Part shown: positions 15,644-60,845 of the stretch, piece after piece
Numbering within the stretch: position 1 is the first letter of the stretch
How the letters are laid out: every line of letters starts with the position of its first letter
NCBI GenBank assembly: GCA_964016885.1
Contig: OZ024740.1
Location: forward strand, 133,486,001-133,550,000
DNA: 64,000 bases
Reading direction: 5' to 3'
Source: Eledone cirrhosa
Lineage: Eukaryota
Notes under the pieces: model-generated
Told to the model about the DNA's origin: nothing
What the model saw: only the letters and a program-made list of their open reading frames with translations
Databases searched by the model: none
Translations under genes and position numbers: made by a program

Positions 15644-15803
15644 AGGAAAAAGTTTAATCCTGACAGCAGATCTAAAGCCGTTTCGACGGCTTGAGCTCTG
15701 CCGTCGGGGTTAAACCTTTTCCTATTACCCACTCTACTACTCTACGTATTGAGTACTCTGGTGCGTTATGGTCCATCTGGTTCCTTACCACACCTTCTTC
15801 GTT
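15644..15803 (+). mobile_element. Fold-back mini-element, GAAACGGC family (hairpin 15644-15723 + tail)
   Basis: Tail tattacccactctactac..gtattgagtactc..gcgttatgg.ccatctggttccttaccaca is shared with 50895, 59935 and 60659; (TA)n on both sides. Confidence 0.85.
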
Positions 15804-15906
15804 ATATATATATATATATATATATATATACATACTGTATATATATATATATATATATATATATATATATATATATATATATATATATATATATATATAT
15901 ATATAG

Positions 15907-16097
15907 TAATAATAATAAATTTGAAGACTAAAATCCAAAGAGGGCTCGATAGGGATAAATATATATCAAATATATAAGAACCGTAGAGCAAATATTTATT
16001 AAAATAACAGATTAAAGTTTAAGCAAAGAATCGCTGCTTTCACCCTTAACGGGATCCTGTTAAGGGTGAAAGCAGCGATTCTTTGCTTAAACTTTAA
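15907..16097 (-). mobile_element. Fold-back mini-element (hairpin 16012-16097 + one-sided tail)
   Basis: Near-perfect 86-bp palindrome. Each arm reads stem-GAAA GCA..TGC TT^, i.e. an HHR 3' half with the apex in stem II. Confidence 0.7.
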
Positions 16098-16108
16098 ATA
16101 TATATATA

Positions 16109-16577
16109 TATAAACGTTAGAATATGTGTAATAAGGCCAAGACAATGCAGATATGGACATAGAAAAAAAAGAATGCAATAGTGAAAGATATTGATGAGAA
16201 TTCGTCTTTCACCTTGAATTTATTTAAATGTCCTTAATTTTCGAGATAATATCTCTTCTTCGGAGGGAAGTAAAAGTCTCAGACCAGCGTCTAAATTTCC
16301 AATGAAGCCATACTATTTCCGGTCAGCATGGCTTCATTGGAAATTTAGACGCTGGTCTGAGACTTTTACTTCCCTCCGAAGAAGAGATATTATCTCGAAA
16401 ATTAAGGACATTTAAATAAATTCAAGGTGAAAGACGAATTCTCATCAATATCTTTCACTATTGCATTCTTTTTTTTTTCTATGTCCATATCTACATTGTC
16501 TTGGCCTTATTACACATATTCTAACGTTTATACCTCATTACACAATGCTTCAAGTGAACTATAACCTCCTCCTCCCA
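16109..16577 (+). mobile_element. Inverted pseudo-LTR pair (~200-bp arms) with a minimal HHR in each arm and a 3' tail
   Basis: 16109-16311 is inverted at 16328-16532. HHR cct CCGAAGA a GAGAT att ATCTC GAAA AT TA^ agg at 16371-16408 (+) and 16231-16268 (-). Confidence 0.85.
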
Positions 16578-16684
16578 TATATATATATATATATGTATGT
16601 ATGTGTACTTGTACTTCTGTATATCTCTTTATAATTGCAATGATATGATTTAGAGGGAGAGGTGTGTCTCTGGATTGTGCAGCC

Positions 16685-17250
16685 CTATGACACGCTATAA
16701 TTGACATTGATTACATTGAACTGCAACAGCTTCAATCTGATGTCTGCTAGAAAGAAAGAAGTGCGCAAAAAAGTATTTAAGGGGACCGTGGTTCTGGTGA
16801 AGTATATTAGTATGAAGTTGTTAGTTGGGGGACATAATTTGAGACCTTTTAATCGGTATTGTCTCATTTGGATTTTACCCAGGACCAGCAATAGTTCTAG
16901 AACATGGACCAATAGACCATTGTGAGTCTCGACTGTGCTTTCAAGAGATTTACCTTTTGGTGAGATGAAGTATTTTCTGGTGTAAAAGAAGATAGCCCCT
17001 CAGTGAGATGCTTTGTTACCTACGTAGTTACCGTGAGTTCGTCTAAATTGCTCCTCAGTTATGGTTGTTTCTAGTGTATATAGTGGTATTGAGGGTTTTA
17101 ATTCTTAGTTGTTAACGTTTTCTATTTTTGTATATGGGATCAGAATTCCTAAATTTTTCTCGTAAGTTGTAATAATTTTGTAATTCTACTAGAGGTAAGA
17201 TTGCTCCAAATGTAGTTTATAGTTTTTGTTGTAACTTAAATGCTTCGCAT
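16685..17250 (-). pseudogene. Possible highly decayed LINE (CR1-like) 3' remnant
   Basis: Only weak peptide resemblance (HNGL..YFTRTTVPLN) to CR1-type C-termini. Confidence 0.25.
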
Positions 17251-56917: not shown

Positions 56918-57620
56918 TCACCACCACTTATGCTGATGATTCAACTCTTTGTGCTGGTTCTTTTGGCACTCCTCCTATCTTGATACGGTTTGCTGCTAAT
57001 CTTGATGTGGATCTGCATGTTGTTCAGAAATGTGGTGAGAAGTAGCTAGTAACTTCCAGCCTTGGCAAGACTAGAACATGTCATTCAGTAGGGAACGGAA
57101 TCCTTATGTTTCTCCCATTTATATAAGTTATAAGTCTGGGTTGTCAAATGGAGTGAAAATCAAACCACTTGGGGAAGAGTCTTTTTTTAATTACTTGGTC
57201 TTACTTTCTCACATGTTCTTTCTCGGTGTTCTTACATACAATGAATTGGTAGTCCAGCTTCTCGTAAGATTGGGTCATTGTAAAGATCAAAGGACTAACT
57301 CACATTCGAGGCCTTTATGAGCAGAGGAAGTCTCTTATAAACCTTTTCATTGCGCTATCTGACCTAATTCGAAACACAGCGTAATCATATGTATGTTGTT
57401 GTGGTTCCACGAATAAAGAAGTATTTCTACGGCCGTAGCTTTTTACTCGAACTCTCGAACTGCTAGACTTTCAATCGCTCTTCCGTCTCATTGTTTTACT
57501 TCTGTTTATGACCAGAATACTTTTAAGTCTGAATTCAATTCAGTTCTTTCGTCTTAATTTCTTCTTCTTCATATTCCCATATAATATGTGACTTCACGCC
57601 TTGTTTGGGACTTTCATAAG
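56918..57620 (+). pseudogene. Decayed CR1-group LINE remnant
   Basis: TYADDSTL..LDVDL..KT; downstream RTARL..ALPSHCF. Confidence 0.55.
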
Positions 57621-58839
57621 AAACAAACAAAACATGAAGATTTTTTTGTAACTACATATTTTTATTCACGAATTTGTAACTACTTATTTTAACTATGAAT
57701 TGATCAGTATTGATTAATAAAATATATGTACAACATAGAATTTACTGCAATAAGAAATATCCAGTAGTAAAAAATAACTGTAAAATATAAATGGCAATAA
57801 GGAAAAAAAAGATATGAAAATATGAAGAAAAAGGAATTATGCATCGAAAGAAGGGAAGCGGAAGAGGGGTGACTGACTCTACACCTCAGTCGTAGTTGTG
57901 TTTCAGCTGCACTCCACGAATAAAATGGCAAAGGTATTGCTGCGGAGAATGTCCAGAGACACCCAGTGCAACAGCTACTCCCCCTCAAGGGGGCTGCTGT
58001 CTTTCAGATTTTACGAAGGAAATCAGCAGTGTGGGAACTGAGGACACCTGACGTCTCGATCCCGCCCAGTACTGACAGGAAACGGTCGGTTAAACCTGAA
58101 TATCTAGGTATCTTCTGCACCCCCGCGTTGCGGTAGGCAGTGTCTGAGTTTGCGGCCGAAACGAGAAGGCCGGATGTGGCGCATGGGTCGCAATGCGTCG
58201 TTTTTCTTGAATATTCTCAAACAAGTTTGAAATTTACAAATGAGAGAGAGAAAACAAAACAAATGTACTGAAAAAGAGGATACATCAGAATGACTATTAC
58301 AGCACATCTACAACACGATCTTCTCATACATAAATGGTTTTGTCTTTCCTAAACGGAAAACATTAGGACTTCATTGCCAAAAGTACAGTTCAACTGTTCA
58401 ATAATCGGTCGGAGAAGGAACTAAAGAACAAACTAAATAATATCGAAGTCTCATTTAAATATTCAGGGACACTTTGAAGAACATCGCCATGTTTTTTTCA
58501 AATATTTTTCGTGCAACAGCAGTAAGCACAACCACCACAGAAACAACAACAACAACAGCAACAACAACAACCGCAACAACAACAACAACATGAGCAACCA
58601 GATAAACTACTCAATGCTAGTACGACAGAAGACGTATTAAATCGCATCATGCCCATCAGCTCTTCCTCACATTCCAGTTATTCACATTTACCACTTTTTA
58701 AAGCTATCTCAAGAGATCAAGCATCAATACTGTCATCGTCTCCTACTGCTTCTACTACTAACATATCTACTACCTAAGTTAGTGATGAATCTGTCCACTC
58801 TTCCTCTCTATCTCCTTCTCAATCCAAATGCATACCTCA

Positions 58840-59780
58840 GAGATCTATGAAATATGTGCCAAACATGCAAAAATTTGAATCTATAAAGTATCAACTTCCC
58901 CACACAGCACATACACGGGAAACCCAAAACTATGCCGTTATTCACTACAGGCAAGGCTGTGCCTACACAGTGACTGTAATTTCATATATCTACCTGGAAA
59001 ATGACGCACAATTCACCAACCCCGAAGCACCGTCACCACCAAGTACTAAACTAAACTTATGCCCACACGCATAACATGTAAACCTAAAATCTACTGCTTT
59101 TCTCAACGAGATAGATTATGCCAGAGATATTGGAGTAATTGTTGATCAGAAAGTAAACTGGATTACGCACATAAACAACAAAGTTGTCATGACACGCAAG
59201 ATGTGTTCCTGGGTTCTCAGAATTTTCCGGCCGTGAGATATTCACACCATTCTCTTCTCTATCTTTGTACGGTCCCACTTCGGATACTACTGCCCAATCT
59301 TGACTCCTCACATGAAACAAAGTATTATGAATATTGCTTTGTCTTACATTCTCACTTGATCTTTCTTGTGGTTCTTATATACAATCAATTGGTTGGTCTG
59401 CTTTTCATAAGGTCGAGTCATTGAATAGGTCAAAGACTACCTCACATCCGTGGCCATTTTGTATCTTTACAAGTTCAATTACAAAACCAATAGACGGCTT
59501 GGCAGACCTTGACTATTGGGGACTTGGGGACGACTATAAAAACTCAAACTGCAAGCGTTACATCATATGTATGATTTGGAAAATATTGCCCAAAAGTTAT
59601 TAAAACATAACGACACAAATATGTTATTTCAACTGCTCCCCCTCCTTTTAATATCATACCCAAATACATCAAAACAGGAAGAAATCCCTTGGACAATATC
59701 AGCGGTGTGAAGAAGGGAAATTGTTGTCCATTGAGAATTACTAGTCTGCCATAAAAACTCTTTGAATTGGCTTGTGCCTC
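58840..59780 (+). pseudogene. Decayed CR1-like LINE remnant
   Basis: VRSHFGYYCPILTPH and LDYW...RYIICMIWKIL resemble the CR1 motifs VRPHLEYCCPVWSPH and YWERL..RY..WKI. Confidence 0.55.
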
Positions 59781-59934
59781 AGAGGTGAACTTTCAAGGTG
59801 AAAATTACATGGTCTCTCGTGTCTGGAAGTGTCTTTATATATATATATACATATATATATATATATATATATATATATATATATATATATATATATATAT
59901 ATATATATACAGTATATATATATATATATATATA

Positions 59935-60491
59935 TAGGCAAAAGTATGACACCGAATTGATGCGCGACGCCGGGCGACCGCACGCAGTGAACTGCGAATG
60001 GCGCCACCGGCGTCTGACGCGTCGTCGGTCTCAGTCTAATATTTGCGCCGCGACCAATGCGAAGGCCGACCGTATCGACGCGGTCTGTTGGGACCGGGCG
60101 GGAAGACGGATCGACGACGGCGACGAACGCGGCCCGCGTTTTGTAACCCGACTCCCGGAATACATGCAACTGCGGCCGCGATCGCAGGTCGCACCCGGGA
60201 GTTACAAAACACGTGCGGCGTTCGTCGCCGTCGTCGTTCCGTCTTCCCGCGCGGTCCCAACAGACCGCGTCGACACGGTCGGCCTTCGCATTGGTCGCGG
60301 AGCAAATATTAGACTGAGATCGACGACGCTTCAGACGCCGGCGGCGCCGTTCGCAGTTCGCTGCTCCGGTCGCGCAGCGTCGCGCATCAATTCGGGGTCG
60401 TACTTTATCCTATTACCCACTCTACTACCCTAAGTATTGAGTACTCAGGCGCGTTATGGACCATCTGGTTCCTTACCACAATTCCTTTGTT
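59935..60491 (+). mobile_element. GC-rich ~480-bp fold-back joined to the GAAACGGC-family tail
   Basis: 59935-~60155 is inverted at ~60195-60412 (roughly 90% by eye); family sequence starts at tcggggtc (60392). Confidence 0.85.
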
Positions 60492-60658
60492 ATATATATA
60501 TATATATATATAGAGAGAGAGAGAGAGAGAGAGAGAGAGAGAGAGCCAATGCACACACACACACACACACACACACATATATATATATATATATATATAT
60601 ATATATATATGTGTGTGTGTATATATATATATATATATATATGTATATATATATATAT

Positions 60659-60845
60659 AATTTCAGGACGCTGACGGCTAAGATTCGACCGTTTCAACTG
60701 CTACATCCATTCGGATCTAGCTGTTGAAACGGCCGGAGTCCAGCCGTCGTTGTCCTGAGTTCCTTTCACATTACCCACTCTACTACTCCAAGTATCGAGT
60801 ACTCTGGTGAGTAATGGTCTAACTGGTTTTTACCACCTCCAATAT
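60659..60845 (+). mobile_element. Fold-back mini-element, diverged GAAACGGC subfamily
   Basis: ..tagctgtt GAAA CGGC cggagtcca GCCG TC^ ..; inverted left arm; tail ttacccactctactactccaagtatcgagtactctggtg. Confidence 0.8.

Follow-up and report, generated by a model that had tools for sequence, protein, structure and literature searches.

A 64,000-nucleotide (nt) stretch of the Eledone cirrhosa genome (assembly GCA_964016885.1, contig OZ024740.1, positions 133,486,001 to 133,550,000 of the forward strand), referred to below as the window and numbered from its first base, is rich in (TA)n and retroelements and contains eight short palindromes, at 15644, 15907, 16109, 37722, 41791, 50895, 59935 and 60659, in which one arm carries a tail and the other does not. 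How do such lopsided hairpins arise? A preliminary description proposed an undescribed class of mini-elements resembling miniature inverted-repeat transposable elements (MITEs), generated when complementary DNA (cDNA) stalls in stem II of a hammerhead ribozyme, snaps back and primes its own second strand. Our analysis of the window and of the 3.0-Gb assembly indicated that the eight elements are short insertions of five families of Penelope-like elements (PLEs), not MITEs, and we consider it probable that each hairpin is a one-off PLE insertion made by paired priming, an account in which a transcript start site and a hammerhead cut also play a part.

Inverted-repeat analysis recovered the hairpin with a one-sided tail in all eight elements: one arm stops at (TA)n and the other continues into a tail that itself ends at (TA)n. 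The arms are identical at 32/38 positions in the element at 15644, 39/39 at 16012, 40/41 at 37806, 202/203 at 16109, 87/92 at 41853, 53/54 at 50975, 199/224 at 59935 and 35/50 at 60659. The tail at 37722 exceeds the ~45-105 nt given earlier: it starts from near 37678 and measures ~128 nt. Four of the eight (15644, 50895, 59935 and 60659) have one tail in common and constitute family A, and the others belong to families B (15907), C (16109), D (37722) and E (41791). The long elements at 11362 (family H), 42056 (family G) and 53391 (family F) show the same asymmetry as the short ones, as had been noticed. To judge abundance we used 80 evenly spaced 10-kb stretches from the four largest contigs (800 kb); copies retrieved by search are biased to young elements. 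The 80 stretches contained 30 head-to-head pairs of seven families, which by extrapolation corresponds to roughly 100,000 hairpins genome-wide.

Use of the tails as queries, as had been suggested, led to parents coding for reverse transcriptase (RT) or a GIY-YIG endonuclease for three of the five short-element families (A, B and C). The family C parent carries RVT_1 (E-value 9e-16) and GIY-YIG (E-value 4e-5) in one 957-amino-acid frame. Long family A copies extend into coding sequence with a cysteine linker and a GIY-YIG-type end, motifs that were recognized by eye (Pfam GIY-YIG only at an E-value of 0.031), and in the family B parent RT and endonuclease pieces were likewise recognized by eye, the two pieces giving no Pfam match. 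Judged by eye from the cysteine linker, families A and B appear Neptune-like and family C Penelope/Poseidon-like. The parents of families D and E have PLE-type hammerheads and the same pattern of two 3' ends (see below), and tracing reached no open reading frame (ORF) in them. Some copies of family B (L034, L039) and family C (L068, L247) read on past the tail into the ORF's beginning, the ATG lying within the tail or just behind it, so the short elements represent the first 60-270 nt around the pseudo-long terminal repeat (pLTR) and the ORF start; among 123 tail ends of family A no copy read from the tail into an ORF. The hallmarks of endonuclease-positive (EN+) PLEs are thus present, namely an inverted 5'-truncated copy with a one-sided tail and, in family C, a parent with RT and C-terminal GIY-YIG; target-site duplications are unreadable because (TA)n runs flank the copies. 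The inverted 5'-truncated pLTR with a 3' extension, to which the preliminary description had likened the elements, is indeed in print in the accessible parts of PMC8557442 and PMC3846280, and its view of them as retrotransposition products rather than DNA transposons is supported, as are their PLE origin and the reality of hammerhead-shaped motifs in the parents. The idea of a new mini-element class, on the other hand, did not survive: besides having PLE parents, the palindromes of family A show 56 distinct centres among 63, which does not fit a class with a fixed body.

What gives the hairpins their asymmetry became apparent from the 3' ends. Positions in the leader were counted from the predicted hammerhead scissile bond, with 0 as the first base after NUH. 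Families have two 3' ends, an inner one and one at the end of the tail, at +20/+97 (A), +29/+115 (B), +124/+166 (C), +49/+136 or more (D), +38/+103 (E), +19/+89 (F) and +154/+211 (H). Pairs not chosen for a tail and with both outer ends classed comprised 86 of inner plus tail, one of inner plus inner and none of tail plus tail, with 25 further pairs having an unclassed end. With 86 of 87 pairs of one kind, and with 500 to 1,453 candidates from a first look at the genome for each of five tail or arm-plus-tail queries, the asymmetry is far beyond chance. In 172 copies, the inner arm was longer in 68, the tailed arm in 44, and both were equal in 60. The arms did not overlap in 13 of the 172, the tailed arm stopping before the inner site to leave a plain inversion without a palindrome. 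The near-absolute inner-plus-tail pairing and these plain inversions argue for paired priming, likely on one RNA. Junctions showed overlap in 96 of the 172 copies, filler in 60 and blunt joining in 16, which together with the differing centres points to one-off end-joining. According to the accessible part of PMC11167929, the Poseidon element PAc in vitro cuts and extends both target strands, with two RT starts that bound the tail.

The 5' limits of the arms were mapped in families A and B, and in family F by exact motif matches only; ungapped arm mapping gave false peaks in families C, D, E and F through indels in the references, and family E ends, with one reference, were not mapped to the base. 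Family A ends have their mode at -41, with 128 of 193 between -35 and -44 and 10 past -66, and in the evenly spaced sample all 21 fall between -25 and -48. The ends pile up at TT/AGTCC (-41) in family A, at TT/AGTTT (-46) in family B and near CC/AGATT (-45) in family F, sites that fit YYANWYY, which we take to be the initiator pattern. A G preceded the first base (A) in 20 of 38 arms compared to 39 of 209 other ends (Fisher p 4e-5), and in 16 of 27 after removal by hand of six duplicate or templated rows (p 0.005 versus one third). Both arm types, inner-start and tailed, carry this untemplated G, as do solo copies, where it directly follows (TA)n (L162, L358). In the available text of the respective sources, an untemplated 5' G is a known trace of a copied cap (PMC3287187), and the Penelope pLTR has an internal promoter (PMC2377424). 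The family A axis, lying at an initiator-like site and often following an untemplated G, is therefore likely the capped transcript start of the pLTR promoter. We infer that the capped end of the RNA bounds both cDNAs, and the short copies would then be copies of the mRNA leader (60-270 nt). In families B, E and F the start site seems to lie near the 5' edge of the hammerhead. In family A a start inside the stem II loop would explain the lost core without a stall, and because it lies 3' of the core, promoter transcripts would lack the ribozyme and only read-through RNA could cut.

Every family shows a type I hammerhead shape, those of families B to K having been drawn by eye. The canonical core of CUGANGA and GAAA is present in families E, F and H and in some family D copies. 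Family A has UUGANAA, which is the U3-A8 variant of PMC4209133, family B CAGAAGA, families C and J CCGAAGA, and family K has UUGAAAA with GCAA replacing GAAA. As described before, the arms at 50975, 60659 and 16012 read GAAA-stem III-NUH; CUGANGA had been regarded as lost there, but the parents, of families A and B, do not have this sequence. A strict CUGANGA scan gave no type I or III fold worth keeping, and the variant cores came to light only through the parents. In family A, stem II has 9-11 bp and a 32-nt loop, the minimum-energy fold of the parents is a three-way junction, and covariation across nine parents is modest (94.7% of cells paired, three double changes); the minimum-energy folds of families B to K show stem II only. 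In family K (L018, L023, L187, L278, L309), UUGAAAA and GCAA were present in every intact copy seen, yet two joints with ribosomal RNA (rRNA) lie at its predicted cut. For comparison, the accessible text of PMC4209133 reports PLE hammerheads with a type I fold in the pLTR, a U3-A8 core variant, an extra base before stem II and a palindromic stem III, in pairs on opposite strands 100-700 bp apart, all of which is alike here, and notes that in vivo evidence is lacking. Further variants here, relative to that text, are U4A, U4C, GCAA for GAAA, and the 32-nt stem II loop with a likely promoter start.

The interior of the element at 59935 is 18S rRNA (~nt 176-417); in both arms it meets family A sequence at the predicted scissile bond, to within a 3-nt overlap. 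We used 18S and two 28S stretches as queries, scored the best 40 candidates for each, and inspected 78 loci with 112 rRNA 3' ends, rDNA units included and matches to TA runs disregarded. Among the matches listed, nine of ten classed rRNA-PLE joints are at the predicted bond, in four families: A (59935, L387), F (L232, L233, L237, L345), J (L231) and K (L347, L243). This tally leaves out as unclassifiable L349, L242 and, on its family E side (near -50), L347, where a later insertion is probable. With a 5-nt window in a 60-100-nt leader, the chance of nine in ten is ~1e-9. In the palindromic cases both arms share the joint (6/6), with the axis within the rRNA, and the rRNA ends differ between events (416-422, 937, 1578, ~3070), indicating that the events are independent. 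The family J hammerhead was found only after its joint, and the predicted cut falls exactly there in all 11 fetched parents. Seven family F arms begin at the bond versus one between -3 and -20; three of the seven were picked by the rRNA search, and the position of one arm (L302) is probably due to chance. A pooled test (25 of 64 ends at the scissile bond) was discarded, as alignment slips made up most of the family A rows.

Joints at the bond, whether made by ligation or by an RT jump, point to cleavage in vivo, so PLE hammerheads, including those with variant cores, likely cleave in vivo. Hammerhead cleavage leaves a 5'-OH end, which is a substrate of RtcB. The position of the joint, common to both arms, fits such an end, and we lean slightly towards joining of rRNA to the 5'-OH product by an RtcB-type ligase before copying; an RT jump, with a second RT crossing the nick, is a substantial possibility that falls short of being probable. 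The accessible text of PMC6789731 reports that RtcB makes U6/L1 chimeras before retrotransposition.

The rRNA search gave several other observations. A repeat with a fixed 5' head (L364, L366, L370, L372-L378, L380-L384, L234, L343) is joined to rRNA fragments with several ends (28S ~684-706, 780, 1002 and 3085; 18S 420-422), and this head may be a structured RNA, perhaps a ribozyme or a nuclease-resistant fold; Rfam gave no more than a weak match to a flavivirus stem-loop (E-value 0.01, below the cut-off). Fragments of 18S at five loci (L200, L235, L344, L346, L348), two of them starting from mature nt 1, terminate at ~nt 386-424, where the heads of tRNA-like short interspersed nuclear elements (SINEs) follow; fragment ends are concentrated at 18S 411-424, which may be a natural break. 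The rRNA genes are very long (L363:2264-8605 and L172), with a 28S match of 6.3 kb and an 18S of ~2.4 kb, and ~20 dispersed rDNA-like units occur on many contigs.

The proposed course of events would be as follows. Reverse transcription of a single RNA would be primed by both strands of a (TA)n target, by one strand at the tail end and by the other at the inner start; the two cDNAs would run off the 5' end of the RNA and then be joined. The tail-primed cDNA would displace the inner cDNA, or stop before it and give a plain inversion. The hammerhead cut would provide a rarer second 5' end, and its 5'-OH product, joined to rRNA fragments, would give rise to the rRNA palindromes.

Several observations weigh against this account. 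Rfam scans of the window and seven loci found no hammerhead, and in family A the double changes all come from one subfamily, with 15 of 500 shuffles scoring as high. The set selected by tails holds four tail-plus-tail pairs. At the 5' side, the initiator consensus is short and common in AT-rich DNA, in family A many arms stop 1-6 nt inside the site, and ends are scattered in families C, D and H, those of D being mostly long. The YAG at the same place could also be a splice acceptor, which we rate as the weaker reading because the modal end includes the AG. At locus L369, rRNA was captured at the start-site end of family K, in one arm only, and heads of tRNA-like SINEs and of another repeat likewise carry joined rRNA pieces, so this genome is a place of template jumping or of some other chemistry. 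Of the joints at the bond, L237 has just 10 nt in common with its PLE, and L243 and L387 carry a substitution at the joint. Exact stem II joins were found in two of 16 family E palindromes (L133, L140). Finally, the start site, cap, cleavage and ligation are all deduced from genomic sequence.

The two family E joins bring us back to the snap-back proposal, in which a single stalled tail-primed cDNA folds back upon a micro-hairpin (stem II as first proposed) and serves as the primer for its own second strand, with cutting or capture at the inner site. The preliminary description had placed the apex of the elements at stem II, and this holds for two of the eight: at 50975 and 60659 the axis lies in the stem II loop of the parent (L314 for the latter), coinciding in the 50896 element with the initiator-like site. 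It fails for 15644, 59935, and the remaining four. The axis at 16012 is a GATC just 5' of the parent's stem II (CCC/GGG), which is whole in both arms, both arms at 16109 retain a whole hammerhead with core, those at 41791 retain CUGAUGA and the whole hammerhead with the axis 5' of stem I, and the 37722 element lies entirely 3' of its parent's hammerhead. When the axis was compared with the parent hammerhead over many copies (171 tailed palindromes with mapped stems, pooling search targets and incidental copies), the predicted enrichment was found in family A, where 59 of 83 have both inner ends within stem II, and was lacking elsewhere (B 1/23, C 0/12, D 0/9, E 3/16, F 1/23, H 0/5). Even in family A the inverted arm reproduces the parent's 3' strand with the loop and in no case its 5' strand, and a fold-back join of parent loop to parent 5' stem strand in one orientation was found in none of 176 arms; the sole pattern match, L027, was false by eye. 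The tail-less arm often extends further 5' (68/172) or does not overlap at all (13/172), outcomes that copying from the tailed cDNA cannot produce. Filler at 60 junctions, the cap-like G on both arm types, solo copies that use the inner site alone, and the absence of stem II at the axes of the 18S palindromes are also contrary to snap-back. Microhomology overlap at 96 of 172 junctions and the rRNA joint common to both arms, as copying predicts, are in its favor, as are proposals in the accessible parts of PMC3846280 (self-priming at PLE palindromic junctions, so that the mechanism is not undescribed either) and PMC8557442 (endonuclease resolution of the tail). We regard snap-back as unlikely: stem II is not the general cause of the palindrome axis, and as a general route snap-back is largely refuted, although it may remain a minor one.

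A different source of RNA is conceivable for paired priming itself. Copies running from start site to tail would keep the internal promoter that Penelope possesses (PMC2377424, accessible part) and could be transcribed and recopied as a self-renewing non-autonomous class, which is compatible with ~95% of family A arms stopping at or inside the start site, with a few centres recurring two or three times, and with the many subfamily variants. However, 56 distinct centres in 63 imply that palindromes are not copied whole, the recurrent centres sit on microhomologies, and full-length leaders provide the same template, which makes such self-renewal improbable. Equally doubtful, and marginally more so in our judgment, is that the palindromes were longer when inserted and that cruciform deletion has since removed their centres, the axis then being a product of decay. 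Long DNA palindromes are generally unstable, and deletions between short direct repeats fit the 15644 element and some others, but decay does not account for the sharp cliff at -41 with its untemplated G and fillers, for solo copies without a palindrome that end at the same site, for young near-identical arms that are as short as old ones, or for the persistence of long palindromes (42056, family D). MITEs, or DNA transposons of another kind that target TA and bear subterminal inverted repeats, would likewise be short, palindromic, TA-flanked and very numerous, but the variable interiors, the cap-like G, captured rRNA that started as RNA, and tails that run on into RT or GIY-YIG coding parents leave this idea practically no credit, and for families A, B and C the coding PLE parents refute it.

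The paired-priming account can be compared with several known systems. In the accessible text on EN+ PLEs (Penelope/Poseidon, Neptune, Naiad; PMC8557442, PMC3846280), the inverted 5' copy, one-sided tail, (TA)n targets, tail over the ORF start and palindromic junctions are alike, whereas here the tails are longer (45-128 nt versus 30-40), pairing is nearly absolute (86/87), most family A copies comprise the leader only, and the 5' limit lies at one site with a cap-like G. Poseidon PAc (PMC11167929, accessible part) shares cutting and extension of both strands, two internal RT starts bounding the tail, a predicted dimer and uncut RNA as the main template; the inverted arm is left unexplained there, and no RNA reads are reported at the hammerhead cut, to which genomic joints map here. 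In the U6/L1 chimeras (PMC6789731, accessible part) a host RNA is likewise joined to the 5' end of a retroelement RNA and then retrotransposed; here, the element's own ribozyme would supply the 5'-OH and so fix the joint on the element side, the donors are rRNA fragments, and ligation is putative. Non-LTR retrozymes (bioRxiv 10.64898/2026.07.22.740005, accessible part) are also non-coding, hammerhead-related and PLE-derived, but form head-to-tail arrays with a whole ribozyme per unit, whereas we found head-to-head one-off insertions, often without a whole ribozyme, and no head-to-tail tandem units each with a hammerhead.

Resemblance to L1 elements concerns priming. In L1 twin priming, two target nicks prime two cDNAs on one RNA, and joining by microhomology produces a 5' inversion. 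Here, both priming events would use fixed internal sites separated by 45-128 nt, which makes the cDNAs overlap and yields a palindrome. A literature search, with subscription papers and supplements outside its reach, gave no report of chimeric rRNA retrotransposons made by hammerhead and RtcB, and one on Penelope twin priming, octopus Penelope palindromes, in vivo RNA ligation by PLE hammerheads, or pLTR palindrome MITEs gave nothing relevant, early papers on Penelope tails lying outside it. The inverted-plus-tail shape itself is known (PMC8557442, accessible part); new, as far as we found, are the start-site and paired-priming account of the hairpins and the rRNA captured at hammerhead cut sites.

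The PLE features of the window are listed in Table 1.

Table 1. PLE insertions and related copies in the window (window coordinates)
Feature	Position	Strand	Details
Family A solo copy	8666..8719	+	ends at inner start; no tail, no inverted arm
Family H long insertion	11362..12628	+	long inner-start arm from 11362, includes a GIY-YIG piece; tailed arm 12394-12628 is short and begins in stem II
Family A (A1) short PLE insertion	15644..15802	+	inner-start arm 15644-15681, tailed arm from 15686; predicted scissile bond 15705/15706; tail ~15724-15802; axis at GCCGT/ACGGC micro-hairpin spanning GAAA
Family B short insertion	15906..16097	-	tail 15906-16011; arms 16012-16050 and 16059-16097
Family C short insertion	16109..16576	+	arms 16109-16311 and 16328-16532; tail 16533-16576, with ORF start codon inside; minimal hammerhead in both arms, core CCGAAGA from 16376, predicted cut 16404/16405
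Family D short insertion	37678..37887	-	tail 37678-37805; arms 37806-37846 and 37847-37887
Family E short insertion	41790..42041	-	tail 41790-41852; arms 41853-41944 and 41946-42041
Family G long PLE insertion	42056..50524	-	tail end 42056; inverted arms 42155-45532 and 47125-50524; GIY-YIG pieces
Family A (A2) short insertion	50896..51088	-	tail 50896-50974; tailed arm 50975-51028; inner-start arm 51035-51088
Family F insertion	53391..56690	+	inner-start arm 53391-53952; tailed arm 56061-56690; hammerhead with canonical CUGAUGA, cut predicted at 56598/56599; four rRNA fusions of this family at other loci
18S rRNA + family A 3' end	59935..60490	+	predicted scissile bond 60393/60394; identical joint in both arms (59953 side); axis near 60158 within rRNA; tail 60414-60490
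Family A (A4) older short insertion	60660..60844	+	arms 60660-60709 and 60714-60761; tail to 60844

At five loci (L002, L010, L012, L023, L048) and in the window at 15644-16576, PLE families have inserted serially in each other's (TA)n flanks, producing trains of short elements. The window also contains a small palindrome (50537-50727; arms ~18 nt) that is nested where the family G element ends and continues on one side as far as (TA)n, an imperfect palindrome between TA runs (8776-9040; axis near 8909), and a 207-nt direct repeat (98%) with copies 593 nt apart between TA runs (52569-53368), which resembles a partial-tandem pLTR. Nested copies of long interspersed nuclear elements (endonuclease, RT, zf-RVT) occupy 17546-35688 in both orientations, with a 992-amino-acid frame at 28146-31124.

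The origin of inverted-plus-tail insertions and the cutting of PLE hammerheads in vivo are open questions in the accessible text of PMC8557442, PMC4209133 and PMC11167929. Tentatively, and with somewhat less than even confidence, we propose that in the germ line PLE hammerheads, variant cores included, cut, that the host tRNA ligase joins the 5'-OH product to broken rRNA or other RNAs with a cyclic phosphate, and that dimeric double-priming has made ~100,000 leader palindromes that map transcript starts and cuts. If true, a 5'-OH product that retains both RT start sites would be retrotransposed, and PLEs would capture host RNA at a joint fixed by their ribozyme. A one-step model that the existing in vitro system can test emerges from the strict pairing of inner with tailed arms, from the plain inversions and from the cap-like G. 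For annotation, these abundant hairpins (30 pairs per 800 kb, seven families) belong under truncated PLEs and not MITEs. The rRNA fusions would act as cleavage fossils, from which the cut sites of active ribozymes, odd variants too, may be mapped from genome sequence alone.

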